A DNA stretch of 64,000 nucleotides from an uncultured Chloroflexia bacterium (GTDB taxonomy: Bacteria; Chloroflexota; Limnocylindria; QHBO01): contig OY969424.1 of NCBI GenBank assembly GCA_963699235.1, positions 784,884 through 848,883 of the forward strand, given 5' to 3'. The first letter of the stretch is position 1, and each line of letters opens with the position of its first letter. Shown here one piece after another: positions 2,879 through 18,941 of this stretch. Both the position numbers and the translations under genes were made by a program. The notes under the pieces are model-generated. The model made no database searches. It was not told the origin of the DNA and was given only the letters and a program-made list of their open reading frames with translations.

Positions 2879-2900
2879 CGGAATCTGGCAGGCTGTACCG

Positions 2901-4166: not shown

Positions 4167-4214
4167 TTGAGTCACAGCGACCCCATGCCCGCCCGTACCA
4201 GATGAGTGCGCCGG
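4167..4214 (+). promoter_or_regulatory. class-A conserved upstream motif of sigma 1
   Basis: TTGAGT (4167) followed 18 nt later by GCCCGT, then the box GTACCAGATGAGTGCGCCGG (4195..4214). Homologous to the boxes at 9106..9125 and 12919..12938. Ends 29 nt before ATG 4244. Confidence 0.45.
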
Positions 4215-4243
4215 ATCCACCGGTGCTCCACAGCGGAAGACGC

Positions 4244-4798
4244 ATGGACATCGATCTGGTGAAACGGGCGCAGGACGGAGACGAAGAGGCATTCGCGAGC
4301 CTTGCCGTGTCCGCCGGCGACCGCCTCCATGCCGTGGCGCACAGGATCCTGCGCGACACGCACCTCGCCGAGGACGCCACGCAGCAGGCGCTGCTGACCA
4401 TCTGGCGAGACCTTCCGCAGCTGCGCGACCCGGCACGCTTTGATGCCTGGTCGTATCGGCTCCTCGTGCGCGCCTGCTACGCCGAGGGACGCCGATCCGG
4501 ACGCTGGTCGCCTGGCCTGCGCCTGGTGCTGCACGAACGAGATGAACCGATGTCGGTGGACGGCACGGGCTCGGTCGCTGACCGCGACCAGCTCGAGCGC
4601 GGCTTCCGACGGCTTTCCATCGATCACCGTGCGGTGGTGGTCCTGCACCACTACCTCGACATGCCGCTCGACCAGATCGCCGACACGCTCGGCGTTCCGA
4701 TCGGGACGGTCCGATCTCGACTTCATTACGCGATGCGCGGGCTGCGGGCGGCACTCGATGCCGATGCGCGACCCACGCCGCGGGAGGCTGCGAAGTGA
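4244..4798 (+). CDS. ECF-type RNA polymerase sigma-70 factor, paralog 1 (subfamily A)
   Basis: ORF 4202..4798. I chose ATG 4244 (MDIDLVKRAQ) because paralogs 2 and 4 start MDTDL/MDTET at the homologous position. Region 2 (EDATQQALLTIWRDLPQLRDPARFDAWSYRLLVRACY) and region 4 HTH (VVVLHHYLDMPLDQIADTLGVPIGTVRSRLHYA) are present. Confidence 0.9.
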   Translation: MDIDLVKRAQDGDEEAFASLAVSAGDRLHAVAHRILRDTHLAEDATQQALLTIWRDLPQLRDPARFDAWSYRLLVRACYAEGRRSGRWSPGLRLVLHERDEPMSVDGTGSVADRDQLERGFRRLSIDHRAVVVLHHYLDMPLDQIADTLGVPIGTVRSRLHYAMRGLRAALDADARPTPREAAK

Positions 4799-5682
4799 GC
4801 ACCGAACGCGACGTCAACCGCATCGTCCGGTCGTGGATGGAGGAGGGCGTGACGGCGCTCCCGGATCACATCCTGGATGCCGTGCTCGACCAGCTCCCCG
4901 CGACCCCACAGCGCCGCGCCACCTGGTGGCGGGTGCAGAGGTACATCGAAATGAACAAGCCACTTGCCATTGGGCTCGTGACCGCGGCGGCCATCCTGGT
5001 CGTGGCCCTCATCGGCCTGAATCTCGGTCCGGGTTCCGGGCCACCGCCAGGGGGAGAGCCCAGCACGACGCCGGCTCCCTCGTCGACACCGGCGCCGACA
5101 CCGGCGGCAATGGTCCAGGGACCCATGGATCCGGGAACCTACGTCTCGCCAGCAAGTGTGGGGGGCGCGGCGTTCGACTTCACGGTGCCCGCCGGTTGGA
5201 CGACTGATTCGGACCTCTTCGTCCAGAAGAACACGGACGCCGACCAGCTCGTCGAGATCACGACCGGGGTGATGTTCTCCGCATGGCAGGTGGATCACGT
5301 TTTCGCCGACGCCTGCGAGGGCGATGGAACGGAAGAACCCATCGACGACGCCGTCGCATCGCTGGCCACCGCACTCGCCAACCAGGCAGGACGGGAGTCG
5401 TCCGCTCCGGCGGAGATCGAAGTCGATGGGTATACCGGCCAGCTCGTCGAACTGACCGCCCCGGCCGACCTCACCAGTTGTGGAGGAAGGCTCCGAACAT
5501 GGCCGGCCTTGAACGGTGATCTGAACAGCGGCTGGCCCGCCGGCCCGGGCCAGATCGACGACGTCTACATCGTTGACGCGGACGGCACCCGGCTCGTGGT
5601 CGTCGCAACCCATTGGGCAGGCACGAGCGCCGCGGACCTGGCCGAGCTCGAGGAGATCGTTGTCTCCATCCAGATCCGGTAG
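4795..5682 (+). CDS. sigma-coupled single-pass membrane protein (putative anti-sigma factor), partner 1
   Basis: ORF 4795..5682. Its GTG start overlaps the sigma stop (GTGA). N-domain RDVNRIVRSWMEEG..TPQRRATWW, one TM helix (PLAIGLVTAAAILVVALIGL), a Pro/Ser/Thr linker and an ectodomain of about 190 aa. Confidence 0.8.
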   Translation: MSTERDVNRIVRSWMEEGVTALPDHILDAVLDQLPATPQRRATWWRVQRYIEMNKPLAIGLVTAAAILVVALIGLNLGPGSGPPPGGEPSTTPAPSSTPAPTPAAMVQGPMDPGTYVSPASVGGAAFDFTVPAGWTTDSDLFVQKNTDADQLVEITTGVMFSAWQVDHVFADACEGDGTEEPIDDAVASLATALANQAGRESSAPAEIEVDGYTGQLVELTAPADLTSCGGRLRTWPALNGDLNSGWPAGPGQIDDVYIVDADGTRLVVVATHWAGTSAADLAELEEIVVSIQIR

Positions 5683-5772
5683 CCCCACGCTGATCACCTG
5701 ATCGGTGGCCCTTGGCGGCCGTGGAGCAATCCGCGGTCGCCTTTCGTTGATCCGCTGCGTCAGACTGCAGGC

Positions 5773-6174
5773 ATGACGGATACCCGAGCGGCGGCCCAGA
5801 ACTGGGCCCGGACCTGGCAGGCGGCGTGGGAGGCCCGGGACGTGGAGCGGGTGCTCACCCTCTACGCCCCGGAGATCGAGTACTGGACCGAGCCTTTCCG
5901 TGAGCCGTACCGCGGGCTTGCCGGCGCGCGCGAGTACGTGAGCCAGTCGTTTGCCTCCGAGCACACCGTCACGGCCTGGTTTGGGGAGCCGGTGGTTGAT
6001 GGCGACCGCGCTGCCATCCCCTGGTGGGCGACCCAGATCGAGGACGACAAGCCGGTGACCCTGGCCGGCATCTCCCTCCTCCGCTTCAACGCGGACGGCT
6101 TGGTGGTCGAGGAGTGGGACACCTGGAATGCCTCCGAGCCGATGCACGACCGCCCGCCGACCTGGGGTGGCTGA
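5773..6174 (+). CDS. SnoaL-like / NTF2-fold protein
   Basis: ORF 5773..6174, 133 aa. Pattern of small NTF2-like proteins (W..AW.ARD...VL.LYAP...). Confidence 0.7.
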   Translation: MTDTRAAAQNWARTWQAAWEARDVERVLTLYAPEIEYWTEPFREPYRGLAGAREYVSQSFASEHTVTAWFGEPVVDGDRAAIPWWATQIEDDKPVTLAGISLLRFNADGLVVEEWDTWNASEPMHDRPPTWGG

Positions 6175-6541
6175 CCAACCCGCCCCTGACGGCCTGAGCC
6201 CCGCCGCGGTCGCGTACCGGGCGGCGCATGCGGCGTTCGCGCTGGCCCAGCTGACGAGCCTGGCCTACGTGTGGGGCTGTGTCTTGAGCGGACGCCGTGA
6301 CCGCCCCCTGGGCGCGGCGGTCGGCTTCCTCGGCCTCGAGGGTATAGCCCTCGTCATCGGCCGCGGGAACTGCCCGCTCGGTCCGTTCCAGGCACGGCTC
6401 GGTGACCCGGTCCCGCTCTTCGAGCTCGTCCTTCCGCCGAGGGCGGCCAAGGCCGCGGTTCCGGTCCTTGCCGCGGTCGCCGTCGCCGGCATTGCCGCGG
6501 TCGCGATCCTGCCCGCGGCGGATCGGGCCAACCGTCCATGA
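6167..6541 (+). CDS. small membrane protein (DUF2784-like, GNCPLG motif)
   Basis: Frame of ORF 6128..6541. GTG at 6167 overlaps the stop of the SnoaL gene. Hydrophobic helices and a CPL motif. The start is uncertain. Confidence 0.5.
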   Translation: MADQPAPDGLSPAAVAYRAAHAAFALAQLTSLAYVWGCVLSGRRDRPLGAAVGFLGLEGIALVIGRGNCPLGPFQARLGDPVPLFELVLPPRAAKAAVPVLAAVAVAGIAAVAILPAADRANRP

Positions 6542-7323
6542 CCGCCCGGCCGGCAGCGCCGGTGCCGCAGGGGGTCATCGGCCGGGTCGCCGCTGCCTAT
6601 CGGGTCAACTCATCGGCGATTGCCGTCGCCCTGCTGATCATCACCAACCTGATCCCGCTGGTGGGCGTCCTGTGGCTGGGCTGGAGCCTGCTGCTCATTT
6701 TGGCCCTGTACTGGGCCGAGAACGGCGTGGTGGGCGTGATCAACGTCCTGAAGATCATGACCGCTCGGGGCGAAAACTCGACCGCGACCGTTCGCTGGCG
6801 AATGAACGGGAAGCCGATCGACCAGGTTTCGCGGCTCGGGATGGCCGGATTCTTCGCCCTTCATTACGGCATCTTCTGGGTCGTCCACGGCGTGTTCGTG
6901 TTCACCTTCATCCCGGTCATGACCGGGATGACCATGTCGGGCGGCTTTGGCCCCGGCTTCGTGTTCATCACCGGTCCCGTTGGCCCGCCCGGTCTGCCGG
7001 GAGTGGACGCATCGGTCTTCGCGTTCGGGGTGGTGGGGCTGGCCATCAGCCACGCGGTGTCGTTCTGGATGAACTACCTGGGGCGGGGCGAGTACCGGAT
7101 CCTCTCGCCGGCGGTGGTGATGATGCAGCCGTACGGGCGGCTGGTGATCATGCACCTGACCATCCTGGTCGGCGCATTCGTCAGCATCTCGATCGGCACG
7201 CCTTTCGGATCGCTCCTGGTGCTGGTCGTCCTGAAGACGGCGCTCGACCTCGCGTTCCACCTTCGCCAGCACCGCGACGTGCCGGCCGCCTCACCTGGGA
7301 GCGTGCTCGCGAACTCTGCCTAA
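6538..7323 (+). CDS. polytopic membrane protein (DUF6498-like)
   Basis: ORF 6538..7323, 261 aa. ATGA overlap with the upstream gene. At least six hydrophobic helices. The family name is from memory. Confidence 0.7.
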   Translation: MTARPAAPVPQGVIGRVAAAYRVNSSAIAVALLIITNLIPLVGVLWLGWSLLLILALYWAENGVVGVINVLKIMTARGENSTATVRWRMNGKPIDQVSRLGMAGFFALHYGIFWVVHGVFVFTFIPVMTGMTMSGGFGPGFVFITGPVGPPGLPGVDASVFAFGVVGLAISHAVSFWMNYLGRGEYRILSPAVVMMQPYGRLVIMHLTILVGAFVSISIGTPFGSLLVLVVLKTALDLAFHLRQHRDVPAASPGSVLANSA

Positions 7324-7335
7324 GACCGGACTGCC

Positions 7336-8034
7336 CTAGGCCGGAGGAGTTTCCTTGGTCTGGGTCGTGCCTCGCGCCCGAGCCCGCTTGGCTCGCGATC
7401 GCGACGGCGGGGGCGAGGCCATCGCCGCTGCACCGCCCAGGACTCGGATGCGGTGCGGGGCGGTGATGTGGTCCACGACCAGCCCGACGACGGCGCCCAG
7501 CCAGGTCCCAATGGCGATCGCCGCCACGGCCATTGCCGGTTCGGCCGTCAGTGGCCCGGTCAGCGACGCGCCCAGGGCGACAGCGGCTCCGGCCGCCACG
7601 GTCCAGAAGAAGGCAACCGCTCGCGGGCTCCCCAAACCGACCGCGAACCCGGCGCCCATCCCCACCAGCGCCACCAGCTCACCGTGGAACTGCCACGCGC
7701 CGACCGTCCACCCCGCGGCCGCCAACACGCCGATCCCACCGGTCCACGCCACGAGGTTCAGGTTGGAGCCGAGCTCCGCGGACACCGGACGGCGCAGCCA
7801 GGCAAGGAACAGGTCCACCGCGAGGTACAGCGAGGCCGCGCCGGCGAGCGTGAAGAGCAGGGACGGCGTGCCCATCCCGAGGACGGCGCCCAGCAGCGGG
7901 ACGACGAGGAAGAGCGCCGTCACCGGGCGCGCCATGAACCGGCGCAGCACCCATCGGGGATGCGCACGCACGGAGCGGATGCGCTCGCGGATCGCCGACC
8001 GGTCGGAAGCCCTTCGGGATTGGCTGACAGCCAT
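7336..8034 (-). CDS. hypothetical polytopic membrane protein
   Basis: ORF 7336..8034, 232 aa, with five clear TM helices and a basic C-terminal tail. The overlapping + strand ORFs are low-complexity shadows. Confidence 0.55.
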   Translation of the reverse strand: MAVSQSRRASDRSAIRERIRSVRAHPRWVLRRFMARPVTALFLVVPLLGAVLGMGTPSLLFTLAGAASLYLAVDLFLAWLRRPVSAELGSNLNLVAWTGGIGVLAAAGWTVGAWQFHGELVALVGMGAGFAVGLGSPRAVAFFWTVAAGAAVALGASLTGPLTAEPAMAVAAIAIGTWLGAVVGLVVDHITAPHRIRVLGGAAAMASPPPSRSRAKRARARGTTQTKETPPA

Positions 8035-8105
8035 GGACGGATGCTAGGCAGACCCTCCGCCCGAGCCGATCCCCCAAAGGTACCCGCGGCATTCACCGGG
8101 CAACG

Positions 8106-8134
8106 AAAAAGGCCGCCCCACAGCCTGGGCGGCC
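8106..8134 (-). terminator. intrinsic terminator downstream of 8223..8960
   Basis: GGCCGCCC (8111..8118) pairs with GGGCGGCC (8127..8134). On the minus strand the hairpin is followed by TTTTT (complement of 8106..8110). Confidence 0.6.
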
Positions 8135-8222
8135 CTTTCGCCTAACTAGACGGCGCCGATGGCGCCGGGGTTCCTGCGATTCAGGTTCTCTGCATCACAT
8201 CGCGTTGCAGCGCGGTGGACGG

Positions 8223-8960
8223 CTAGCTCGCCGAAGGCTCGGGGGACGTATCCGGATTGGTGGAGGGACCGTGGAACCAACCACGTCGCGAACCCCAGTC
8301 CCCGATGTTCCCGTCGTTCAGCGTGGCCTCCACCCGCTCGATGATGGCATCGGCCTTCTCCTGTGTGATGGTGCCGGCCTCGACAGCGGCATCTACATCG
8401 GCCTGGGCCGATGCCAGGGCGGCGGCGACGACATCGGCGTAGGGGACACCCTCAGCCGTGGCGACCTCCTCGAGCGTGCTGTCGGTCAGCGCCTCGCGGA
8501 GCTCGGCCGTCGTCATGTCCAGCGAGGTCGCGGCGGCCTCCCACATCCCTGTCAGGAAGTCCACCCGGGCGGCGTGTTGGCCCCAGTGGCCCAGCTTGAA
8601 GCCGATCCATCGGCAACCGTCGCCGTCCCACTCGTTGACGCGCTCGATCATTCGGTCGGCCGCGGCCTGGGTCAGGTCACCGGCCTCGACCGCAGCGTTG
8701 ATGGCGGCGATGGCCGCGGCCTTCGCCGCGGGCGCCAGCTCATCGGTCGAGACGCCCAGCTCCGAGGCGAAGGTGTCGAGGAAGGTCTGGCAGTACGCGC
8801 TGGCGTCCCCGGTCGTCTCCTCGTCCCCGAAGACGGCGGATGGCTCGCTGGACCCACTCCCGCCCGGAGCGGCCAGGACCGAACCGATCAGTGTTCCGCC
8901 CACCAGGGCGGCGGTGATGAGGACGGCTGCAGCGCCGAGGATCTTCAGTGGCTGCGACAT
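8223..8960 (-). CDS. secreted protein with two G-x-(L/I)-T-Q-x-x-A-D-x-(M/I)-I-E-R-V helical repeats (DUF2680-like)
   Basis: In-frame ATG 8960..8958 (MSQPLKILGAAAVLITAALVGG, signal/TM) inside ORF 8223..9293. Repeats AVEAGDLTQAAADRMIERV and AVEAGTITQEKADAIIERV. Divergent from sigma 2. Confidence 0.65.
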   Translation of the reverse strand: MSQPLKILGAAAVLITAALVGGTLIGSVLAAPGGSGSSEPSAVFGDEETTGDASAYCQTFLDTFASELGVSTDELAPAAKAAAIAAINAAVEAGDLTQAAADRMIERVNEWDGDGCRWIGFKLGHWGQHAARVDFLTGMWEAAATSLDMTTAELREALTDSTLEEVATAEGVPYADVVAAALASAQADVDAAVEAGTITQEKADAIIERVEATLNDGNIGDWGSRRGWFHGPSTNPDTSPEPSAS

Positions 8961-9078
8961 GATTCCGTGACTACCTCGTGTGTGGGCTCGCGTGGTCGTG
9001 GGTGCCCTCCAACGCCGCCGATCTTCGACCGGCGCGGTGAAGATCGCATCAAGAACGGCGACCTCCCTGGCCGACGCT

Positions 9079-9125
9079 TTGAAGAAAGCAGCCCGTTCCA
9101 CGCCCATACCGGATGTAGCGTCGGG
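9079..9125 (+). promoter_or_regulatory. class-A conserved upstream motif of sigma 2
   Basis: TTGAAG (9079) followed 17 nt later by GCCCAT, then the box ATACCGGATGTAGCGTCGGG (9106..9125), identical to 12919..12938. Ends 31 nt before ATG 9157. Confidence 0.5.
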
Positions 9126-9156
9126 CTGAACTGACGCAACAAACGTTGGAAGGGGC

Positions 9157-9705
9157 ATGGATACCGATCTCGTGATACGGGCGCAACGCGGAGACCGAGA
9201 GGCATTCGCGGATCTCGCTGCCACGATCGCAGATCGGTTCCTGGCGACGTCGCACAGGATCCTGAGCGACATCGACCTTGCCGAGGACGCCACCCAGCAG
9301 GCGCTGGTCAGCGTCTGGCAGGACCTTCCGCAGCTCCGCGACCCGGCCCGCTTCGAGGCCTGGTCGTATCGGCTTCTCGTGCGCGCCTGCTACGCCGAGG
9401 GCCGGAAATCCCGCCGCTGGGCGCCAAACCTGAGGCTGCTGACGGTTGACGAACCGATGGCTGCCGACGGTATGAGCGCGGTTGTCGATCGCGACCAGCT
9501 CGAACGCGCCTTTCGGCGACTCTCTCTGAACCATCGAACGGTGGTGGTGCTGCACCACTACCTGGACCTGCCGCTCGATCAGGTCGCCGAGCTTGTCGGT
9601 GCCCCGGTCGGGACGGTGGGATCAAGACTGCATTACGCGATGCGGGCCATGCGCGCGGCGATCGACGCCGACGCTGGCACGACGCCCCGGGAGGCCGCGC
9701 AATGA
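9157..9705 (+). CDS. ECF-type sigma-70 factor, paralog 2 (subfamily A)
   Basis: ORF 9157..9705, 182 aa. Regions 2 and 4 are as in paralog 1. By manual alignment it is roughly four-fifths identical to paralog 4. Confidence 0.9.
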   Translation: MDTDLVIRAQRGDREAFADLAATIADRFLATSHRILSDIDLAEDATQQALVSVWQDLPQLRDPARFEAWSYRLLVRACYAEGRKSRRWAPNLRLLTVDEPMAADGMSAVVDRDQLERAFRRLSLNHRTVVVLHHYLDLPLDQVAELVGAPVGTVGSRLHYAMRAMRAAIDADAGTTPREAAQ

Positions 9706-10644
9706 GTGACGAGCGAGACCTTTCCGGCGACGTCAACCGCGTCGTCCGGTCGTGGCTGCGCGAGGACCGACACGAGGATGCCGACCGCGTCCTGGTGACG
9801 GCCCTGAACACGGTGGACACGACCCCACAGCGCCGATCCACTCGGTGGTCGGCGTGGAGGGATCTTCTTCATGGACAACAACGTCGTCCGCGTCGGCCTG
9901 GTGGCCGCCGCGGTCGCGATCATCGCGGTGATCGCCTTCAATCTTCTGCCGGGATCGCAGGCTCCGGGCGGTGAGCCGAGCGCGACGCCGGAACCGTCCG
10001 TCACCGAACCCTCGGAGTCGGCGGCGGCTGGCCTCCCCGTGGGCAGCTCATATACGCTCTCGGAGGACGAACTACCGATCGCTGTGACGATCCCGGCCCC
10101 CGGCTGGTCCGCAGAGGACTCCAGCTTCCTCGTCAAGGACGGGAACTGCTGCGCGCCGGATGGAGCCAGCATTCTCGGGGCGTGGGCGGGCGATCCGATC
10201 GTCCCGAGCGACCCGTGCCACTGGGCGACCACCATGCCCGACACCCCGGCCACCACGCTCGAGGAGATCGGCGCCGCGCTTGCCAGCCAGGCGACGCGAG
10301 ATGCCTCGGAGCCGGTGGACGTCACCCTGGACGGGCATCCCGGCATCTCGATCACGCTCCATGTGCCGGCTGACATTGCCTACGACGGCGGTGAGTTCAC
10401 CGGCTGTGACGTGGGCGACCCGGGGCCGGGTCAAAATGTCGGCCCCAAGTTCTGCACCTTTGCCCTCGAGGACCCGGCGCTGTGCCACATGTGGTACCAC
10501 GGGCCGGACGAGTTCAGCGAGCTGTGGATCGTGGACGTGGACGGACAGTTCGTGATCGTGACCGGAAACTACCTGCCGGAGACCCCGGCCGAAGATGTCG
10601 ATGAAGTCCAGGCCATCCTCGGCTCCATGACGTTCAGCCAGTAG
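9702..10644 (+). pseudogene. sigma-coupled membrane partner 2, reading frame broken near 9861 (may be an assembly indel)
   Basis: The N-domain lies in ORF 9702..9974 (DVNRVVRSWLRED..TPQRRSTRWSAWR). The TM helix and ectodomain lie in ORF 9871..10644 (..IFFMDNNVVRVGLVAAAVAII..). One extra base at about 9861 separates the two frames. ATGA overlap with the sigma 2 stop. Confidence 0.7.
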
Positions 10645-10651
10645 ACCGATG

Positions 10652-10679
10652 CGTGGGCGGCCCCACCGGGCCGCCCACG
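10652..10679. terminator. bidirectional hairpin between convergent genes
   Basis: CGTGGGCGGCCC (10652..10663) pairs with GGGCCGCCCACG (10668..10679), with a 4-nt loop. It lies between stops at 10644 (+) and 10686 (-). Confidence 0.6.
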
Positions 10680-10685
10680 TCATGT

Positions 10686-11204
10686 CTACCAGGTCTCGCT
10701 GTGGACGACGTCGGCCAGGGACTTGCGGCCGCCGCGCTTGTTCGGGGCGGTGAGCTTCGACGGGTCCGCCGGGTAGCCGAACGAGAGGAGCCAGTCGCAG
10801 CGTTGGCCGACGGGGAGTCCCAGGAGCTCACCGGCCACCCGATGGTTGTGCGCGGTGGCCGGGGCACTCCCGATGCCCAGCTCCCAGGCGGCGAGCACCA
10901 TGCTCTGGGCGGCGCGCCCCAGGTCCCAGAGGATGGAGCGGCCGTGCGGTGTGTCCTGGTCCGGCGCGACGAGCGCCACCGCCACCGCGGCCCCCGCCAG
11001 GTGATCGGCATACCGCCCCACGGCGGTCAGCTGCCGAAGGCGCTCGCGATCGGTCACCACGACGAACGTCCAGACCTGCTCGTTCTTGCTGCTGCCGGTA
11101 CGCCGCCCCGCGTTGAGGATGCGCTCCAGGTGCTCGGGTTCCAGCGGCCGATCGGTGAACTCTCGAATCACTCGCACGGTGTTGATCGCCTTCCACGTTT
11201 CCAT
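10686..11204 (-). CDS. nitroreductase family protein
   Basis: In-frame ATG 11204..11202 (METWKAINTVRVIREFTDRPLEPEHLERILNAGRRTGSSKN) inside ORF 10686..11822. This is the classic nitroreductase N-terminal motif. Confidence 0.8.
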   Translation of the reverse strand: METWKAINTVRVIREFTDRPLEPEHLERILNAGRRTGSSKNEQVWTFVVVTDRERLRQLTAVGRYADHLAGAAVAVALVAPDQDTPHGRSILWDLGRAAQSMVLAAWELGIGSAPATAHNHRVAGELLGLPVGQRCDWLLSFGYPADPSKLTAPNKRGGRKSLADVVHSETW

Positions 11205-11258
11205 CGAGCCTAGTCTAGGCCGAACACCAGACGACCCGAAGGGAACCGCCCTGCGACG

Positions 11259-11308
11259 CAGATTGAACAGTTGGGGTGCTCCCAGGGCTCTCCCTTGTGA
11301 TCGAGTCC
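11259..11308 (+). promoter_or_regulatory. class-B conserved upstream motif of sigma 3
   Basis: CAGATTGAAC (11259..11268), then 30 nt, then GATCGAGTCC (11299..11308). The same two-box arrangement occurs before sigma 5 and sigma 6. Confidence 0.5.
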
Positions 11309-11342: not shown

Positions 11343-11897
11343 GTGCAGGAAGCACTGGTCGACCGAGCGAAGCAGGGTGATGAAGAAGCCTTCGAAGCCC
11401 TCGCTCGCCTGGTCGGGGACCGATGCCTGGCGATCGCGATTCGGATCCTGCGCGACGCCGACCTGGCGGAGGACGCATTCCAGGCCGCGTTCATCACGGC
11501 CTGGCGCGAGCTCCGCACCCTGCGTGACAACCGGCTCTTCGAGCCCTGGCTCCACCGGATCCTGACCCATGCCTGCTACGCCGAGGCCAGGCGTCGCACG
11601 CGATGGTCGGAAGGCATCCATCTCGTACCCGTCGAGCCCTCGTATGGCTCGAACGACTACCTGACCGTGGACGATCGCGACCAGCTCGAACGAGGCCTCC
11701 GGAGGCTCACCGTCGAGCAGCGCGCCGTCCTCGTCTTCCACCACTACCTCGGCCTCTCCATCGCGGAAGTGGCCGAACGGATCGGAATCCCCGTCGGGAC
11801 CGCGAAGTCCCGCCTCCACCACGCCACCAGTGCGCTGAGAGCCAGCCTCGAGGCTGACGCTCGGACGCCATCCACATCCCAGGAGCGATTGGCATGA
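11343..11897 (+). CDS. ECF-type sigma-70 factor, paralog 3 (subfamily B)
   Basis: ORF 11343..11897 with a GTG start preceded by GGAGG. Region 2 (TAWRELRTLRDNRLFEPWLHRILTHACY) and region 4 (VLVFHHYLGLSIAEVAERIGIPVGTAKSRLHHA) are present. Confidence 0.9.
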   Translation: MQEALVDRAKQGDEEAFEALARLVGDRCLAIAIRILRDADLAEDAFQAAFITAWRELRTLRDNRLFEPWLHRILTHACYAEARRRTRWSEGIHLVPVEPSYGSNDYLTVDDRDQLERGLRRLTVEQRAVLVFHHYLGLSIAEVAERIGIPVGTAKSRLHHATSALRASLEADARTPSTSQERLA

Positions 11898-12811
11898 AGA
11901 CGCCGCGAAACCCCGATCGACTCATTCGGACCTACCTCCAGGAGGACCAGGCCAACGAGTACCACGAGGTTCCCGAGCATCTCTTCAACGCCATCCGCGA
12001 CGGGATCGAACAGACACGTCAGCGGGCCGTCATCGGCTCCATGGGAGTACCCGTCATGAACAAGTTCCTGGCCGTGGGCCTCGGCGTCGCCGCCGTCGTG
12101 CTCGCGGGCTACATCGGCGTCCAGCTTCTCGGTGGCCCGGCGCCCGGCGGCCCGGCGCCGGTCGAGACACCACAACCGGTCGATTCCGCCGCGCCCGAAC
12201 CGTCGAGCCCGGCCGGCGCCGGCCTGCCGGACGGTCCCTTCTCCCTCTGGGCAGGACCACCTTCGATCACGGTCACCATCGCGGCCCCTGGCTGGGACGG
12301 CGAAGTGGACGGTGGCATGTTGGTCAAGGACGAGGATGCCGACTCGCCGGACTTCGCAGGGATGATCGTGTACACGGGCGATCTGTTCGTGTACGGCGAT
12401 CCCTGCCAGTGGGAGGGGACCGAGCCGGATTCTCCTGCCACCACCCCCGAGGAGCTCGTGGCCGCACTGTCGGCCCAGGCGCTGCGTGATGCCTCGGAGC
12501 CGATAGACATCACGCTCGACGGGCACGCCGGAAAGGCGATCACCCTCCATGTGCCGGACGACGCCGTGGTCAGCGGAGAAGATTTCCCCGATTGCGACCA
12601 GGACACCTTCGGCGTGTGGACGGACAGCATCGACGGCGCCCCCGGCCAGGCACCGTATCGGTACAACCAGGGCTCGGGCCAGATCGACGAGATCTGGGCG
12701 GTGGACGTGGACGGCGCCTTGACGGTCATCGACTGGACGTACTACCCCGCCACCCCGGCCGAAGACGTCGCGGAGGAACAGGCCATCGTCGAGTCGGCAA
12801 CCTTCGAGTAG
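11894..12811 (+). CDS. sigma-coupled single-pass membrane protein (putative anti-sigma factor), partner 3
   Basis: ORF 11894..12811. ATGA overlap with the sigma stop. N-domain DRLIRTYLQED..IEQTRQRAVIG, TM helix MNKFLAVGLGVAAVVLAGYIGV, and an ectodomain with the DPCQW and FPDCD motifs. Confidence 0.8.
   Translation: MKTPRNPDRLIRTYLQEDQANEYHEVPEHLFNAIRDGIEQTRQRAVIGSMGVPVMNKFLAVGLGVAAVVLAGYIGVQLLGGPAPGGPAPVETPQPVDSAAPEPSSPAGAGLPDGPFSLWAGPPSITVTIAAPGWDGEVDGGMLVKDEDADSPDFAGMIVYTGDLFVYGDPCQWEGTEPDSPATTPEELVAALSAQALRDASEPIDITLDGHAGKAITLHVPDDAVVSGEDFPDCDQDTFGVWTDSIDGAPGQAPYRYNQGSGQIDEIWAVDVDGALTVIDWTYYPATPAEDVAEEQAIVESATFE
12005..12187 (+). repeat. 183-nt near-identical tract shared with 16542..16724
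   Basis: Covers IEQTRQRAVIGSMGVP.MNKFLAVGLGVAAVVLAGYIGVQLLGGPAPGGPAPVETP. I counted about 15 mismatches over 183 nt by eye, far fewer than in the flanking parts of partners 3 and 5. Confidence 0.7.
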
Positions 12812-12847
12812 ACACGGCGCTCGAACGAGCGCGGCCACAGACCGATG

Positions 12848-12875
12848 CGCGGGCGGCCCAACCGGGCTGCCCGCG
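12848..12875 (+). terminator. hairpin downstream of partner 3
   Basis: CGCGGGCGGCCC (12848..12859) pairs with GGGCTGCCCGCG (12864..12875) with one G-U pair, followed by a T-rich stretch. Confidence 0.5.
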
Positions 12876-12891
12876 TGCTTCTACTCGCATT

Positions 12892-12938
12892 TTGAAAAAA
12901 CGGGCGCTCGGCATGCTCATACCGGATGTAGCGTCGGG
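12892..12938 (+). promoter_or_regulatory. class-A conserved upstream motif of sigma 4
   Basis: TTGAAA (12892) followed 17 nt later by GCTCAT, then the box ATACCGGATGTAGCGTCGGG (12919..12938). Ends 33 nt before ATG 12972. Confidence 0.5.
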
Positions 12939-12971
12939 ACCCAACCTGACGCCGATACCCCGGGGAGGGGC

Positions 12972-13520
12972 ATGGACACCGAGACCGTGAGACGTGCACA
13001 GGGTGGAGACCAGGAGGCGTTTGCCGACCTGGTCGATGCCATCGCGGGTCGGTTCCTGGCCGTGTCGCATCGAATCCTGGGCGACATCGACCTTGCCGAG
13101 GACGCCACGCAGCAAGCGCTGCTCAACGTCTGGCAGAACCTTCCTCAGCTCCGCGACCCGGCCCGCTTCGAGGCCTGGTCGTATCGGGCTCTCGTCCGTG
13201 CTAGCTACGCCGAGGGTCGGAAATCCCGCCGTTGGGCGCCGAACATGCGGCTGCTGTCGGTTGACGAACCGATGGTGGTCGATGGTCTGGGCTCGGTCGT
13301 CGATCGCGACCAGCTCGAACGCGCCTTCCGGCGACTCTCCCTGAACCATCGCACGGTGGTGGTCCTGCACCACTACCTGGACCTGCCGCTCGACCGGGTG
13401 GCCGAAATTGTCGGCGCGCCAGTCGGGACGGTGGGCTCGAGACTGCATTACGCAACGCGGACCCTGCGCTCGGCGCTTGTTGCCGACGCGCAGCCGACTT
13501 CCCGGGAGGCAGCGCAATGA
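12972..13520 (+). CDS. ECF-type sigma-70 factor, paralog 4 (subfamily A)
   Basis: ORF 12972..13520, 182 aa. Colinear with paralog 2. Confidence 0.9.
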   Translation: MDTETVRRAQGGDQEAFADLVDAIAGRFLAVSHRILGDIDLAEDATQQALLNVWQNLPQLRDPARFEAWSYRALVRASYAEGRKSRRWAPNMRLLSVDEPMVVDGLGSVVDRDQLERAFRRLSLNHRTVVVLHHYLDLPLDRVAEIVGAPVGTVGSRLHYATRTLRSALVADAQPTSREAAQ

Positions 13521-14329
13521 CCCAGTTCCATCCCTCCGATCGGGACGTCAACCGCGCCATCCGGTCGTGGCTCCACGAGGACCGGCAGGAGGACGTCTCC
13601 CGCATCGCGGGAGCCGTGCTGGACGAGCTGGGCGCGACCCCACAGCGTCGGACCACCACCTGGTGGCCGGCGCGGAGGACGCCTGAAATGAACAAGTTCC
13701 TTGCCATCGGTCTCGGCGCGGCAGCCGTGGTCGTGGCTCTCCTCATCGGTTCGAACCTCATGGGTCCGTCGAGCCAAGCGCCCGGCGGCGCACCACCGGC
13801 ATCGGTGGAACCATCGGTGGAGCCCTCCGAGGCAGCCCCGTCGTCGGCCCCATCCGCCCCGCCGCTGACCCAAAGCTTCACCTCGACGCGGCACGGGATT
13901 TCACTGTCGTACCCCGAGGGATGGACCGCTCAAGTGGCGACCGAGCCCTGGACGGAAAGCACGTTCCCCCTGTTCTTTGGTGGGCCTCATGCCGATTGGC
14001 TGTCCGACCCCGTCCTTGAGGCTGATCTGTTCCTGGCCATCGCCTCGCAGCCGATCGGCGATTCCACGCCCGAGGACTGGGCCGCCGAGCAGCTGGCCAG
14101 CGACGAGGGCTGTGGCACGACAACCGAGCCGATCGCCTTCGACGGCGGCACCGGACTGACCGGGCCCGGAAACTGCACGGTTGCAGTCATCACCGCCGAT
14201 GGCCGCGGCTACTGGATCCAGCTCTACACGGGTGGCGACGACCCAGATGCCGTGGCTCCCTACGACAGGGCGTGGTTCGAGGAGTTCCTGGCCACGGTGC
14301 AAGTGCATCCCGAGGACGCCGTGGACTGA
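13517..14329 (+). CDS. sigma-coupled single-pass membrane protein (putative anti-sigma factor), partner 4
   Basis: ORF 13517..14329 with ATGA overlap. N-domain RDVNRAIRSWLHEDR..TPQRRTTTWW, TM helix MNKFLAIGLGAAAVVVALLIG, and an ectodomain unrelated to those of partners 2, 3 and 5. Confidence 0.75.
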   Translation: MTQFHPSDRDVNRAIRSWLHEDRQEDVSRIAGAVLDELGATPQRRTTTWWPARRTPEMNKFLAIGLGAAAVVVALLIGSNLMGPSSQAPGGAPPASVEPSVEPSEAAPSSAPSAPPLTQSFTSTRHGISLSYPEGWTAQVATEPWTESTFPLFFGGPHADWLSDPVLEADLFLAIASQPIGDSTPEDWAAEQLASDEGCGTTTEPIAFDGGTGLTGPGNCTVAVITADGRGYWIQLYTGGDDPDAVAPYDRAWFEEFLATVQVHPEDAVD

Positions 14330-14343
14330 GGGCCGGAGCCCGA

Positions 14344-14378
14344 ACGTGGGCGGCCTGCACGGGGCCGCCCACGTTTTC
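14344..14378 (+). terminator. intrinsic terminator downstream of partner 4
   Basis: ACGTGGGCGGCC (14344..14355) pairs with GGCCGCCCACGT (14363..14374), followed by TTTT. Confidence 0.65.
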
Positions 14379-14386
14379 CTCGCCAG

Positions 14387-14399
14387 CCAGATTGAACCG
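14387..14399 (+). promoter_or_regulatory. CCAGATTGAACCG box upstream of the amidohydrolase gene (identical 13-mer at 15803..15815)
   Basis: This is the 5' box of the class-B motif, 69 nt before ATG 14468. It lacks the downstream GATCG box seen before the sigma genes. Confidence 0.45.
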
Positions 14400-14467
14400 C
14401 CTGGCGCCGTTCCCGCCCCTCTCAGGCGGAGCCTCGTGAGTTCGCGAGCGTTGGGAGTGAACTGGGC

Positions 14468-15811
14468 ATGACCAAACGAGCCCTGATCCTGGTCGCCGTC
14501 CTTTGGTTGGTGGCCTGCGCCCCGACTGAAACGGCTTCGCCCTCCCCGCCGGCAGACTCAGCCCCGGAGTCCGGGCGCATGATCCTCGTCGGCCAGATCG
14601 TGACCATGGACCACCCCGCCATCGCCGAGGCCCTCCTCATCGAGGACGGCCGCGTGGCCGCGGTCGGGACCCGGGACGAGGTGCTGGCACTCGCCGACGA
14701 CCAGACCCCGGTCATCGACATCGGTCCCAACGTCGCCTACCCCGGCTTCATCGACGCCCACGCGCACTGGATCGGTGACCGCCAGATCTACGACATCGAT
14801 TCGCCGGCGGCGGCGATGGACGCGGCCATCACCCGCGGCTGGACCTCGATCTCCGAGCAGTGGGTCAACGACGAACGGCTCGACGAGCTGGAGGCCCTGG
14901 CCGCGGACCACGCCCTCCCGCTCCGGGTGGACGCCTACCTGGCCCTGAACGCGCTGGAGCCCGGCGGCTACTACGGCGACTGGTATGCCGATCGCGAGCC
15001 AGGGCCGGTGGACGACTTCCTCCGTGTCCGGGGGCTGAAGATCCACCTCGATAGCGGCAGCGGCGCCATCCTGTACTGGGACGCCGCCACCCTGGACCAG
15101 ACCATCGAGGACGCCAACGCGGCGGGTTGGCAGCTCTCGGTCCACGCTGTCAGCACCGAGGCGCAGGAGATGGTCCTCGACGCGTTCGAGGCCGCGATCG
15201 GCCCGACCGGTCCCAACCCGCTCCATCACCGGATCGAGCATGCCCTTCAGGTGACCGATGCCCAGCTGGCCCGCATGGTCGCCATGGACCTGGCCACGGT
15301 CATCCAGCTCGACGGCGCCGCCTACGACTGGGTGGACTGGACGGCGACCCTCCCCGGAGAAGACGGTCGCGACTACCTGGGCGAGAACCCCGAATGGGTC
15401 GCCCGCTGGCGCGACCTGGTGGACGCCGGGCTCCACGTGGCCGGGTCATCCGACATGCCCTGGTTCCTCCCCGAGGTCCCGATGACCGATGACATCGGCC
15501 GACCGGTGGACGAGATCGCGGGCGGGATGGACGGCCGAGGTCGCGAGGTCCCGGAGACCCCGGAGTGGATGCTCGACCAGCTGCTGACCGCCGAGCAGGG
15601 CCTGCGGTCGGTGACCCTCGATGCGGCCTGGGCCCTGGGCGACGAGGCGAACCGCGGCCGCCTGGCGGTCGGGACCTATGGCGACGTCATCATCCTCAGC
15701 CGCGACGTGACGACCGGCACGCCGGACGAGATTCGCTCGACGGAGGTCATCGCCACCATCGTCGGCGGCAGGACCGCCTTCTGCGCGGACCCGGCCTACT
15801 GCCCAGATTGA
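14468..15811 (+). CDS. amidohydrolase-family metallo-hydrolase, lipoprotein
   Basis: ORF 14468..15811, 447 aa. Lipobox (LWLVAC), an HxH metal motif (FIDAHAHW) and the amidohydrolase_3-like layout. Confidence 0.85.
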   Translation: MTKRALILVAVLWLVACAPTETASPSPPADSAPESGRMILVGQIVTMDHPAIAEALLIEDGRVAAVGTRDEVLALADDQTPVIDIGPNVAYPGFIDAHAHWIGDRQIYDIDSPAAAMDAAITRGWTSISEQWVNDERLDELEALAADHALPLRVDAYLALNALEPGGYYGDWYADREPGPVDDFLRVRGLKIHLDSGSGAILYWDAATLDQTIEDANAAGWQLSVHAVSTEAQEMVLDAFEAAIGPTGPNPLHHRIEHALQVTDAQLARMVAMDLATVIQLDGAAYDWVDWTATLPGEDGRDYLGENPEWVARWRDLVDAGLHVAGSSDMPWFLPEVPMTDDIGRPVDEIAGGMDGRGREVPETPEWMLDQLLTAEQGLRSVTLDAAWALGDEANRGRLAVGTYGDVIILSRDVTTGTPDEIRSTEVIATIVGGRTAFCADPAYCPD

Positions 15812-15853
15812 ACCGATAGGCTGCCTCGGGCGCTCTTCAGTCCGATCGCGCCC
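15803..15853 (+). promoter_or_regulatory. class-B conserved upstream motif of sigma 5
   Basis: CCAGATTGAAC (15803..15813, overlapping the amidohydrolase stop codon), then 30 nt, then GATCGCGCCC (15844..15853). Confidence 0.5.
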
Positions 15854-15890
15854 AGACCGGGCGTGACACGGCCCCGACACGGAGGGATGG

Positions 15891-16446
15891 GTGCAGGCAG
15901 AGCTGGTCAACCAGGCGAAGCGAGGCGATCGAGAGGCCTTCGACGCTTTGGCTCGCCTGACCGGCGACCGATGCATGGCGATCGCGTTCAGGATCCTGCG
16001 CGATTTCGACCTTGCCGACGACGCCGTCCAGGCCGCGCTGCTGACCGCCTGGCGCGAGATTCGCGCCCTGCGGGATCCCGACCTCTTCGAGCCGTGGCTC
16101 CACCGGATCCTGACCCACGCCTGCTTCGCCGAGGCCAGGCGGCGCCGGCGATGGTCAGAGGGGATCCGGCTCCTCCCGGTCGAGCCCGTGCACGGGTCCG
16201 ACCCGTACCGCAATGTTGATGATCGCGACCAGCTCGAACGCGCCTTTCAGAAGGCTCACCGTCGAGCAGCGCGCTGTTCTCGTCTTCCACCACTACCTCG
16301 GGCTGCCGTTGCCCGAGGTAGCTCAACGAATCGGAATCCCACTCGGGACGGTGAAGTCCCGGATGCACCACGCCAAGCAGGCGCTCCGCGCGGCCCTCGA
16401 GGCCGATGCCCGGGCGTCCTCGACACCCCAGGAGCGAATCGTATGA
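15891..16446 (+). pseudogene. ECF-type sigma-70 factor, paralog 5 (subfamily B), frame broken at about 16248..16252 (may be an assembly indel)
   Basis: Region 2 lies in the frame of ORF 15891..17324. Region 4 (RRLTVEQRAVLVFHHYLGLPLPEVAQRIGIPLGTVKSRMHHA) lies in ORF 16213..16446. The sequence gcctttcagaaggctcacc has one base more than the paralog sequence gccttccgccgcctcacc. Confidence 0.75.
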
Positions 16447-17324
16447 CCGAGCGACACGACCTCGACCAGCAGCTGTCGGCCTTCCTGCGAGAAGGTCCGA
16501 CCGACCTGCCCGATCCGTCGTTCGACACGGTCCGCGATCGCATTGAACAGACACGACAGCGAGCCGTCATCGGCTCGATGGGAGTACCCGACATGAACAA
16601 GTTCCTGGCCGTGGGCCTCGGCGTCGCCGCCGTCGTGCTCGCGGGCTACATTGGAGTCCAGCTCCTCGGCGGGCCTGCGCCCGGCGGCCCGGCGCCGGTC
16701 GAGACACCATCGCCGGTCGAGTCCGTCGCGACCGAGCCGTCGGCCGCTGCCGCGGCGGACCTTCCCGAGGGTCCGTACCTGTTCTCAGACGAGGTCCCGA
16801 TCACGGTGACGATCGCGGCCCCCGGCTGGTCCGTGAATGACGACGGAGCCCTCGTCAAGGACGAAAACATCGAGTCTCCAGATGGGCTATTCGTGTTCGG
16901 GCCGTGGGTCGGCGAGTTCTCCGTCCCGGCGGACCCGTGCGAGTGGTCGTCGGCGATGTCCGATACCCCGGCCAACACGGTCGATGAGATCGTGGCTGCT
17001 TTGACCAGCCAGGCCTCGCGCGATGCCTCGGAGCCGATGGACGTCACGGTGGACGGGCATGCCGGGCAGACGATCACGCTCCACGTGCCCGAGGACGTCG
17101 GATACAACGCCGGCGAATTCGACTGCGACCAGGGCAACTTCTGCACCGTGGTGTCCGAAGCGGGTTGCGAGATTCACAACCCTGCCCCCGGCGCCATCAG
17201 TGACCTGTGGATCGGTGACTTCGATGGTGAGGTCCTGATCATGGCTGGCTACTACTACCCGGAGACCTCGGCCGATCACGTCGATGAGATGCGCGGCATC
17301 CTCGAGTCGATGACCTTCGAGTAG
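16443..17324 (+). CDS. sigma-coupled single-pass membrane protein (putative anti-sigma factor), partner 5
   Basis: ATG 16443 (MTERHDLDQQLSAFLREG) overlaps the stop of the sigma 5 C-terminal frame (ATGA). The TM helix is identical to that of partner 3. The ectodomain has the DPCEW and EFDCD motifs. Confidence 0.8.
   Translation: MTERHDLDQQLSAFLREGPTDLPDPSFDTVRDRIEQTRQRAVIGSMGVPDMNKFLAVGLGVAAVVLAGYIGVQLLGGPAPGGPAPVETPSPVESVATEPSAAAAADLPEGPYLFSDEVPITVTIAAPGWSVNDDGALVKDENIESPDGLFVFGPWVGEFSVPADPCEWSSAMSDTPANTVDEIVAALTSQASRDASEPMDVTVDGHAGQTITLHVPEDVGYNAGEFDCDQGNFCTVVSEAGCEIHNPAPGAISDLWIGDFDGEVLIMAGYYYPETSADHVDEMRGILESMTFE
16542..16724 (+). repeat. 183-nt near-identical tract shared with 12005..12187
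   Basis: See 12005..12187. Confidence 0.7.
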
Positions 17325-17362
17325 ACCGATAGGCGGGTCGCCCGCCGTCGCAGAACTCCCGG

Positions 17363-17388
17363 ACGCCCGGCGAGCAATCGCCGGGCGT
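17363..17388 (+). terminator. hairpin downstream of partner 5
   Basis: ACGCCCGGCGA (17363..17373) pairs with TCGCCGGGCGT (17378..17388), with a GCAA loop. Confidence 0.5.
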
Positions 17389-17438
17389 TCACCGTGCACG
17401 TCACCTTTTCGGCAATTCCGGGCCCCATCGCTCGGGGC

Positions 17439-17489
17439 CAGATTGAACGATTGGGCCACCGCCAACTACCTGTAGTGGTGATCGCGTCA
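17439..17489 (+). promoter_or_regulatory. class-B conserved upstream motif of sigma 6
   Basis: CAGATTGAAC (17439..17448), then 31 nt, then GATCGCGTCA (17480..17489). Confidence 0.5.
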
Positions 17490-17523
17490 AATCGGCCGAT
17501 CAGTCGTCAGACTTGAGGAACAC

Positions 17524-18096
17524 ATGCAGGCTGGCAACCAGGACCGAACGCGGGCAGCGCTCGTCGAGCGTGCCCAGGAGGGGGATCGTGATGCGTTCGA
17601 CGCCCTGGCTCGCACGGCAGGAGACCGATGCATGGCCATTGCCACCCGGATCCTCCGGGATACCGATGTCGCCCAGGACGCCGTCCAGGCCACCCTGATC
17701 ACCGCGTGGCGGGACCTCCCGTCACTCCGCGACCCGAATCGGTTCGAGCCGTGGCTCCATCGGATCCTGGTCAACGCCTGCTACGCCGAGGCCAAACGCC
17801 GTCGGCGGTGGACGTCATCCATCCGGATGCTCCCCGTGGACGTGGCCTCGAACGCGAATGACATCCTCACCGTCAACGACCGTGACCAGCTGGAACGGGC
17901 CTTCCGCCGCCTCACCGTTGAGCAGCGGGCGGTGATGGTCCTCCACCACTACATCGGTCTTCCGGTCCCGGAAGTCGCCGATCGACTGGGCATCCCGCTC
18001 GGGACCGCCAAGTCGCGGATCCACCACGCCACCACCGCGCTCCGGGCCAGCGTTGAAGCCGATGCCCGGACGCCCTCACAGGAGCGATCGGCATGA
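17524..18096 (+). CDS. ECF-type sigma-70 factor, paralog 6 (subfamily B)
   Basis: ORF 17524..18096, 190 aa. Region 2 (TAWRDLPSLRDPNRFEPWLHRILVNACY) and region 4 (VMVLHHYIGLPVPEVADRLGIPLGTAKSRIHHA) are present. Confidence 0.9.
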   Translation: MQAGNQDRTRAALVERAQEGDRDAFDALARTAGDRCMAIATRILRDTDVAQDAVQATLITAWRDLPSLRDPNRFEPWLHRILVNACYAEAKRRRRWTSSIRMLPVDVASNANDILTVNDRDQLERAFRRLTVEQRAVMVLHHYIGLPVPEVADRLGIPLGTAKSRIHHATTALRASVEADARTPSQERSA

Positions 18097-18941
18097 CCAC
18101 GCCACGCGATTCCACTCCCGGCGGGTCCGCTCCACGCGACGCCGACCGACTCATCTCTGCCTTCCTGGCCGAGGGCCAGGCCGATCTTCCCGACCAGGTG
18201 TACGACGAGGTGCGGGCCGAGATCGATCACACCAGCCAACGCACCGGTATCGGTCCCTGGAGGACGTCATTCATGAATCGTTTCGCATCCGTCGTCGCCG
18301 TGGCGGTGGTGATGGTGATCGCCGTCATCGTCGGCCTGCAGCTGGCCGGCGGCGGTCCGCTCATCGGCGGTGACCCGTCCGTCTCCCCGTCGCCGTCCGC
18401 CGAACCGTCGGCATCGGACAAGCCGACGCCCAAGCCGACCGGCCCGGCCGAGCCCTCGGCCAAGCCATCCGCGGAGCCGTCCGGTCCCGAGCCGGCCTTC
18501 ACCTGCGGCCAGCCCATCCACCTCGACGCGGTGGGGAGCGACTTCCATCCGCTGATCGTGGCGGACATCCGGCTCGGCACCCATGACGGCTACGACCGGA
18601 TCGTGTTCGAGTACGTGGACGAGGGCTCGCCCTACCTCGACATCGAGGCCGACGAGCCGCCGTTCGTCAAGGATCCCAGCGGCCTGCCGTTGGAGGTGGC
18701 CGGCGACCCGCATTTCCGCCTCATCTTCGGCGGGGCCGCGAAGTACGACAGCGAGACCGGCGAGCAGCCGTACAGCGGGCCCGTGGACTTCGAACCCGGC
18801 TATCCGCAGATCGCACAGTTCGTCGAGGCCGGCGACTTCGAGGCGAGCCATAGCTGGTACCTCGGGACGAACGGCAGTGACTGCCTCCGCGCCTTCTACC
18901 TGACCGAGCCTGGACGGATCGTGATCGACGTCCAGCACTGA
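18093..18941 (+). CDS. sigma-coupled single-pass membrane protein (putative anti-sigma factor), partner 6
   Basis: ORF 18093..18941 with ATGA overlap. N-domain DRLISAFLAEGQADLPDQVYDEVRAEIDHTSQRTGIG, one TM helix, a long Pro/Ser/Ala/Glu/Lys linker, and a distinct ectodomain (IRLGTHDGYDRIVFEY...). Confidence 0.75.
   Translation: MTTPRDSTPGGSAPRDADRLISAFLAEGQADLPDQVYDEVRAEIDHTSQRTGIGPWRTSFMNRFASVVAVAVVMVIAVIVGLQLAGGGPLIGGDPSVSPSPSAEPSASDKPTPKPTGPAEPSAKPSAEPSGPEPAFTCGQPIHLDAVGSDFHPLIVADIRLGTHDGYDRIVFEYVDEGSPYLDIEADEPPFVKDPSGLPLEVAGDPHFRLIFGGAAKYDSETGEQPYSGPVDFEPGYPQIAQFVEAGDFEASHSWYLGTNGSDCLRAFYLTEPGRIVIDVQH

Follow-up and report, generated by a model that had tools for sequence, protein, structure and literature searches.

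Six tandem ECF sigma factor and membrane partner modules in a Limnocylindria genome: a probable, locally amplified family of sigma / anti-sigma pairs

A stretch of about 15 kb (4.2–18.9 kb) in a 64-kb window of contig OY969424.1, from an uncultured soil bacterium of the Limnocylindria (Chloroflexota), contains six related extracytoplasmic function (ECF) sigma genes on the + strand, each accompanied by a membrane partner gene. The window, by which the whole 64,000-nt stretch analysed is meant, has a G+C content of about 69%. The six pairs are probably paralogous ECF sigma / membrane anti-sigma signalling modules with two types of promoter, in an array that grew by local duplication and whose sensor domains were re-sorted by recombination. 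So far, this family of sigma / partner modules has been found almost only in Limnocylindria. The most likely interpretation is an ordinary ECF scheme that employs an undescribed, class-II-like anti-sigma family.

An earlier inspection of the letters of the window (the sequence-only reading) had placed six sigma genes in this stretch and divided them three and three into subfamilies A and B. Six open reading frames (ORFs) of 182–190 aa were found at the positions claimed, and a tblastn search with sigma 1 and sigma 3 as queries recovered the same six and exactly six family copies in the window. Subfamily A is made up of sigma 1 (4244..4798, 184 aa, with the same start as the public gene call), sigma 2 (9157..9705, 182 aa, 81% identical to sigma 4) and sigma 4 (12972..13520, 182 aa). 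Subfamily B is made up of sigma 3 (11343..11897, 184 aa, with a GTG start), sigma 5 (15891..16446, frame broken near 16245) and sigma 6 (17524..18096, 190 aa). The division is borne out by protein identity, which is 69–81% within A, 68–75% within B and 46–55% between the two. Region 2 differs by subfamily (AWSYRLLVRA in A, PWLHRILTNA in B) and the sigma-4 helix is conserved.

Sigma 1 and sigma 3 were scanned against profile libraries as representatives of A and B; the remaining four are 67–81% identical to one or the other. Both match Pfam Sigma70_r2, Sigma70_r4_2 and Sigma70_ECF and score 62–64 bits against the NCBIfam model TIGR02937 (sigma70-ECF, cut-off 42.9). A phmmer search of PDB sequences matched the solved ECF sigmas SigW (E = 1.5e-16), sigma-H of entry 6in7 (6e-16), Mycobacterium tuberculosis SigE (9e-14) and SigL (2e-13). 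The best NCBIfam models for both are generic ECF families. The actinobacterial SigE family (TIGR02983, Streptomyces type) and the neighbouring CU044_5270 family (NF038083) are the best-scoring curated models for the system, both well below their cut-offs; for TIGR02983 the scores of sigmas 1 and 3 were 103.9 and 105.5 bits against 141.55. Judged by their profile and sequence matches, the six genes are ECF (group 4) sigma-70 factors.

At all six junctions the sigma stop codon and the partner start codon overlap by 4 nt, as GTGA once (4795) and as ATGA five times, just as the sequence-only reading had described. Relatives were collected by scanning one genome per species with the sigma alignment, which gave at least 543 confirmed relatives; the best 80 of their loci are nearly all from Limnocylindria metagenome-assembled genomes (MAGs). 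The closest relative sigma in this set is 79% identical, the source genome itself not being among the loci compared. The 4-nt overlap recurs in 121 of the 142 family sigma genes present in 81 loci.

The partners had been described as a short cytoplasmic N-domain, a single transmembrane (TM) helix, a linker and an ectodomain, and AlphaFold2 modelling of partners 3 and 4, with over 100 homologues used for each, agrees with this architecture. The N-domain is about 45 aa long and is predicted to form two helices (residues 7–18 and 28–44 in partner 3, 8–21 and 27–39 in partner 4). The cytoplasmic region ahead of the TM helix spans 53–62 aa, and the basic residues that precede the helix fit an N-in topology. 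The TM helix (residues 58–79 and 60–80, respectively) is followed by a disordered linker rich in Pro, Ser and Ala (residues 80–113 in partner 3) and then by a β-rich ectodomain of about 150–190 aa.

The N-domain appears to belong to a family that has escaped annotation. Pfam and NCBIfam searches of the full partners and of 46 isolated N-domains, taken up to E = 10, returned no consistent family, and the Pfam anti-sigma families matched none of the 46 N-domains even at E ≤ 10. A profile of the same 46 sequences, run against all PDB chain sequences, returned just one designed repeat protein and two chance matches. Weak matches to TIGR03931 and NF038083 fall on TM and linker sequence. For NF038083 (CU044_5270) they score 16.9–19.2 bits against a cut-off of 100 and cover only the second helix, the TM helix and the linker; they occur in 33 of 106 members of the partner-4 family, mostly over the TM helix and the low-complexity linker. 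The HxxxCxxC motif is absent from all 107 N-domains compared, as had been claimed for the six in the window, and none of the 107 contains a cysteine. The earlier statement that the partner family is not a recognised one has thus withstood the Pfam, NCBIfam and PDB-sequence searches, in which no significant match and no described anti-sigma family emerged.

The family itself is large. The N-domain profile matched 2,789 cluster representatives (50% identity) at E ≤ 1e-3 and 979 at E ≤ 1e-10, and the domain lies at the N-terminus in all but two of the 150 representatives listed. A recognisable C-terminal domain was found in few of the 74 long members scanned (PD40 twice, PsbP_2 once, Big_3_5 once). 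Partner 3 has more than 800 homologues, all of them labelled hypothetical and none with a Pfam domain; those with a named source are from Candidatus Limnocylindria or Chloroflexota. Many partners of both types also carry two glycines followed by Pro, Glu or Asp (APGGEPS, NVGGP, LIGGDPS) about 8–15 residues past the TM helix, for example at 12120–12150. A strict form of the pattern is present in only 16 of 106 partners, so the motif is loose. It lies just outside the membrane and could mark a processing site.

Five of the six ectodomains are assigned to a PsbP/Mog1-like fold and one to an AMIN-like fold, the fold being read from models for partners 3 and 4, from an hhalign comparison for partner 1 and from 49–56% identity for partners 2 and 5. 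Partner 3 (11894..12811, B-type N-domain) and partner 4 (13517..14329, A-type N-domain) have ectodomain models with a predicted local distance difference test score (pLDDT) above 90. In Foldseek searches of the PDB, the fold neighbours of these two ectodomains were PsbP, CyanoP and the M. tuberculosis proteins Apa, LpqN and Mtc28. The partner 3 ectodomain resembled Apa, PsbP, CyanoP and LpqN with E = 3.5e-4 to 2.5e-3, a probability of about 1.0 and a target-normalised TM-score of 0.43–0.51; the partner 4 model resembled CyanoP and PsbP with E = 2.3e-6 and a TM-score of 0.50–0.57. Partner 1 (4795..5682, with the GTGA overlap, an A-type two-helix N-domain and a TM helix) is a divergent member of the partner-3 family, aligning over its full length in hhalign (E = 3e-40). 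Partner 2 (9702..10644, A-type N-domain, frame broken near 9866) and partner 5 (16443..17324, B-type N-domain) have ectodomains that form one family with that of partner 3 (49–56% identity among the three; 51–56% for partner 2 against partners 3 and 5). The match of partner 4 to the partner-3 family in hhalign is limited to the N-domain, TM helix and linker, and its ectodomain represents a second sequence family of the PsbP-like fold. At the level of sequence profiles, no Pfam match was obtained for partners 1–5 of the window, and among relatives PsbP matches were isolated and weak (PsbP_2 in 1 of 74, PSII_PsbP in 1 of 106). Partner 6 (18093..18941, B-type N-domain and TM helix) matches the whole of the Pfam AMIN-like model PF24837 over residues 155–282 (91.3 bits against a gathering threshold of 27).

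The ectodomain families cut across the A/B division, since the A-type partner 2 shares its family with the B-type partners 3 and 5. Among metagenomic homologues (P0002, P0034, P0272–P0280), some partners have two tandem ectodomains. In P0034 a partner-1-like domain is followed by a partner-3-like domain, and in P0100 an A-type N-domain is joined to a partner-3-type ectodomain. Such tandem and mixed homologues are direct examples of domain shuffling. P0002 (512 aa) and P0034 (495 aa) had been considered as natural sigma–partner fusions; they were rejected as such and are partners with duplicated ectodomains.

The N-domains follow the sigmas. In the window they split into A and B types as the sigmas do, and this matching split, proposed in the sequence-only reading, extends to 107 complete pairs from related genomes. 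Over these pairs, the more alike two sigmas are, the more alike are their N-domains (pairwise identities, r = 0.90, Mantel p = 0.001; within subfamilies r = 0.78 for B and 0.81 for A). The correlation of sigma identity with ectodomain identity over the same pairs is r = 0.23, and 0.39 and 0.26 within subfamilies. Co-divergence with the N-domain but not with the ectodomain is the pattern expected from cognate binding modules with shuffled sensors, and from this indirect signal we infer that the N-domain binds the sigma. In clusters formed at 90% identity, sigmas 1 and 3 fall into clusters of 20–28 members and partners 3, 4 and 6 are singletons, indicating that partners diverge much faster than sigmas.

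All six sigma genes carry an upstream promoter-like motif that ends about 45–50 nt before the start codon. The A motif, GATTGA-N22/23-CCCATAC, is located on the + strand at 4167..4199 before sigma 1 (reading TTGAGT-N22-CGTACC), at 9079..9110 before sigma 2 and at 12892..12923 before sigma 4, the last also being a member of repeat family D12. The B motif, GATTGAAC-N19-(C/A)(T/C)CT with CTCT as the canonical −10 element, is located at 11263..11291 before sigma 3 (TTGAAC-N19-CTCT), at 15808..15836 before sigma 5 and at 17443..17471 before sigma 6, where the −10 reads ACCT. The B motif resembles the RpoE-type GAAC-N-TCT pattern. In relatives, 44 of 74 B-type sigma genes have the B motif upstream, as against none of 20 A-type genes; the A motif precedes 13 of the 20 A-type genes and none of the 74 B-type genes. 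The background is 0.005 (B) and 0.0015 (A) per 150 nt. The two motifs have a common −35 element and different −10 elements. This arrangement fits a conserved sigma-4 helix combined with a subfamily-specific region 2, and so would fit autoregulation of the modules with two putative promoter specificities. A scan of the array for sigma-70-type promoters found nothing.

One further B motif (14392..14420, −10 reading CCCT) precedes a gene other than a sigma gene, a lipoprotein amidohydrolase on the + strand (14468..15811, Pfam Amidohydro_3, signal peptide ending LVAC). Orthologous amidohydrolases in four related loci (L009, L015, L019 and L048) have the canonical B motif upstream, and 18 related loci have a homologue, which in most of them closely follows a B-type module. 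By motif and position, the amidohydrolase likely belongs to a B-type regulon.

Comparison with relatives bears on how the array arose. Within spans of up to 20 kb, two or more family sigmas occur in 31 of the 81 loci, three or more in 13 and five or more in 6; one locus (L072) has six, distributed over both strands. L067 and L066, both close relatives, share synteny with the window and have 3–4 modules rather than six. Modules 2 and 4 and modules 3 and 5 look like local duplicates, and module 4 separates module 3 from the amidohydrolase, a gene usually found next after a B module. A 180-nt tract of partner 3 (12008–12187) is 88–97% identical to its counterpart in partner 5 (16545–16724), with flanks of only 50–70% identity; it runs from the last part of the N-domain through the TM helix into the beginning of the linker. 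High identity within divergent flanks points to gene conversion within the array, which would be a plausible route for the swapping of sensor domains. The earlier description of a locally amplified battery is therefore well founded: arrays of 3–6 modules recur in Limnocylindria MAGs (13 of 81 loci), the syntenic relatives have fewer modules, and two pairs resemble duplicates. On these comparisons, the array is a lineage-wide and locally amplified expansion. The accompanying claim that the six modules lie on one strand is correct for the modules, which are co-oriented, but three intervening genes are on the minus strand.

The proposed mechanism may be considered in terms of a small number of steps. 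The sigma and its partner would be made from one transcript by coupled translation, and the two-helix N-domain of the partner, whose layout resembles a class II anti-sigma domain, would hold its own sigma at the membrane. The ectodomain, PsbP/Mog1-like in five partners and AMIN-like in one, would sense an extracellular signal, and the sigma would then be released by proteolysis or a conformational change. Once free, the sigma would bring RNA polymerase to the promoter of its own gene and to a few neighbouring genes, among them that of the lipoprotein amidohydrolase. The array would have grown by local duplication, with recombination close to the TM segment placing sensor domains on new sigma / N-domain pairs.

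Most of this scheme has precedent. In ECF systems the anti-sigma gene typically comes immediately after the sigma gene; its product usually crosses the membrane once (82 groups) and in most cases lacks any Pfam domain known from studied anti-sigmas. The commonest ECF layout pairs the sigma with a single-pass protein, encoded next to it, that no Pfam family matches (PMC7826278). What is seen here is therefore an ordinary design, although the partner family is undescribed. As in RpoE–RseA, SigW–RsiW and SigK–RskA, a sigma composed only of sigma-2 and sigma-4 is followed by a partner that crosses the membrane once, with its N-terminus in the cytoplasm and its C-terminal domain outside, and, as in canonical ECF pairs, there is a putative autoregulated promoter with a GAAC-type −35 element. 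Class I anti-sigma domains average 101 ± 33 aa and have four helices, and domains below 50 aa are treated as possible class II (PMC7406223). Unlike class I, the N-domain here has about 45 aa, two predicted helices and neither a zinc motif nor a cysteine, and it has no match to the zf-HC2, RseA_N or RskA-type Pfam profiles, by which four-helix domains of about 50–130 aa are recognised; this places it outside class I and the zinc-binding anti-sigmas (ZAS).

The closer structural parallel is class II, in which CnrY of Cupriavidus metallidurans and NepR have a short two-helix domain, followed in CnrY by a TM helix. In CnrY, helix 1 binds sigma-4 and helix 2 binds sigma-2 (PMC7406223). As modelled, the N-domain has the two helices of class II and resembles CnrY in topology only. 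Similarity to CnrY or NepR was detected neither by the PDB profile search (E ≤ 10) nor in Pfam, and, unlike them, the partners here carry large folded ectodomains. For the logic of a battery of sensors, the closest functional analogue is SigI/RsgI of Clostridium thermocellum, likewise a set of paralogous pairs with a short shared N-terminal domain, one TM helix and varied sensors. C. thermocellum has 8–9 such pairs, which are partner-specific; the inhibitory domain of 50–60 aa has low mutual identity and is a β-barrel that binds only the C-terminal domain of SigI (PMC6582324). The set described here differs in having sigmas of the ECF type, which SigI is not, together with a helical N-domain, PsbP-like or AMIN-like sensors and a grouping of the modules in tight local arrays. 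Expansion of ECF sigma paralogues in soil bacteria has been documented, for example in Solibacter usitatus (PMC3174227). No account of this family or of its arrays turned up in literature searches on Limnocylindria sigma factors, on PsbP with anti-sigma and on tandem ECF arrays. The basic mechanism is textbook; the partner family is undescribed.

Several observations weigh against this interpretation. The N-domain is modelled with a pLDDT of just 60–75 in both partners, and in sequence searches its similarity to solved or curated anti-sigmas is undetectable, the 46-sequence profile finding no anti-sigma among PDB chains at E ≤ 10. Neither a site-1 or site-2 protease nor a signal was identified. 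Simple patterns recover a promoter motif for only about 60–65% of sigma genes, and the conservation of the motifs may partly reflect orthology among the loci. Because the N-domain is encoded right next to the sigma gene, physical linkage by itself could account for the co-divergence. Taken together with the failure to match a known anti-sigma family, linkage would also suit an alternative in which the partners are not anti-sigmas but sigma-dependent, membrane-anchored, PsbP-like surface proteins, either regulon members or positive co-factors, with the sigma controlled in another way, such as by its transcription or by an adjacent two-component system. A response regulator / histidine kinase pair does lie directly downstream (20000–22203), and LpqN, Mtc28 and Apa, the PsbP/Mog1-like proteins of M. 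tuberculosis, are envelope proteins and not known sensors. Against this, a plain anchor would have no need of a cysteine-free, two-helix domain of about 45 aa that is kept over some 2,800 clusters and many ectodomains. Where A and B partners have an ectodomain family in common, as partner 2 has with partners 3 and 5, the N-domain still goes with the sigma subfamily, and the tight 4-nt coupling in 85% of pairs fits synthesis of the two products in matched amounts. This alternative is considered unlikely.

A second group of concerns relates to the integrity of the array. Two of the twelve genes are frameshifted, which counts further against six working modules, as some may not function. Sigma 5 is broken by one extra T in the T run GCCTTTCAG near 16245, a break that the sequence-only reading had seen; it overlooked the second, one extra base near 9866 in partner 2 (9702–10644) relative to the intact orthologue in L066. 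Modules 2 and 5 could accordingly be pseudogenes left by recent duplications, with four modules working, and the redundancy within the duplicate pairs 2/4 and 3/5 could have relaxed selection. Yet apart from single-base indels both genes keep full-length frames, motifs, start/stop overlaps and promoter motifs. The sigma-5 break is a change in the length of a T run, which we take to be a typical long-read sequencing error, and in related MAG loci on long contigs such breaks are common. Both breaks in the window may thus have arisen in sequencing, and a partly decayed array is regarded as rather unlikely. That the six copies are themselves an artefact, through mis-assembled or inflated repeats, is brought to mind by their source, an assembly from an uncultured organism with the proteins on a single 2.09-Mb contig. 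The copies are only 46–81% identical at the protein level, however, each has a distinct partner and flanks, and comparable arrays with partial synteny occur in independent assemblies of relatives, which makes an artefact extremely improbable. The preferred reading remains that of six sigma / anti-sigma modules.

In the related MAG loci, single-base indels split many genes, including the amidohydrolases of L001, L009, L023 and L062 and a partner of L067. Their frequency suggests homopolymer errors at the level of assembly.

The genes between the modules are varied. On the + strand are a SnoaL-like protein, a DUF6498 membrane protein and the amidohydrolase, and on the minus strand are a membrane protein (7336–8034), a DUF2680 secreted protein (8223–8963) and a nitroreductase (10686–11222). 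A role as a mobile element or defence island was considered and rejected, given the SnoaL, DUF6498, nitroreductase and amidohydrolase neighbours and the synteny of the locus in relatives. A terminator-like hairpin follows partner 1 (5714..5741, + strand), as found by a consensus scan only, and an Rfam scan of the window gave no match. ARAGORN made two overlong tRNA calls, one of 96 nt at 19159–19254 (−) and one of 92 nt at 44091–44182 (+). No tRNA was detected in the window by Rfam, and a conserved + strand ORF (19141–19554) overlaps the first call, so both are probably false positives.

The two-component pair downstream of the array consists of an OmpR-type response regulator (20000–20794) and a HAMP histidine kinase (20731–22203), both on the + strand and syntenic with L066 and L067. 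Upstream, a MoaA-like radical-SAM ORF (2196–3995, +) is 599 aa long with domains that start only at residue 279; either its start is mis-set or an upstream gene has been fused to it by a frameshift. Further away on the minus strand is a seventh ECF sigma of a different type with a C-terminal DUF6596 extension (50138–51436), adjoined by a LuxR-family protein fused to an α/β-hydrolase domain (49070–50137). The related locus L001 also has a DUF6596 protein, with YCII neighbours.

Limnocylindria are abundant, uncultured and mostly found in soil, and to our knowledge their signalling is essentially unstudied. The locus indicates that, rather than maintaining diverse regulators, they multiply one compact design, in which an ECF sigma is combined with a short helical partner domain and a PsbP-like sensor that can be exchanged. 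A broader and more tentative proposal, to which we attach a fairly low probability, is that the N-domain defines an undescribed class of ECF anti-sigma with about 2,800 clusters and swappable PsbP-like, AMIN-like, β-propeller and other sensors, and that the Limnocylindria arrays are a fast-evolving battery of mutually orthogonal extracellular sensors with at least two promoter specificities. If so, the arrays would offer naturally evolved sigma / anti-sigma / promoter triplets that are orthogonal to one another. Pairs that are closely related and have promoters that can be told apart would suit the study of how specificity diverges after duplication, and could provide orthogonal switches for synthetic biology. 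If the N-domain is confirmed as an anti-sigma, a sizeable unannotated family would join the anti-sigma catalogue and PsbP-like domains would gain a sensor role in bacteria.

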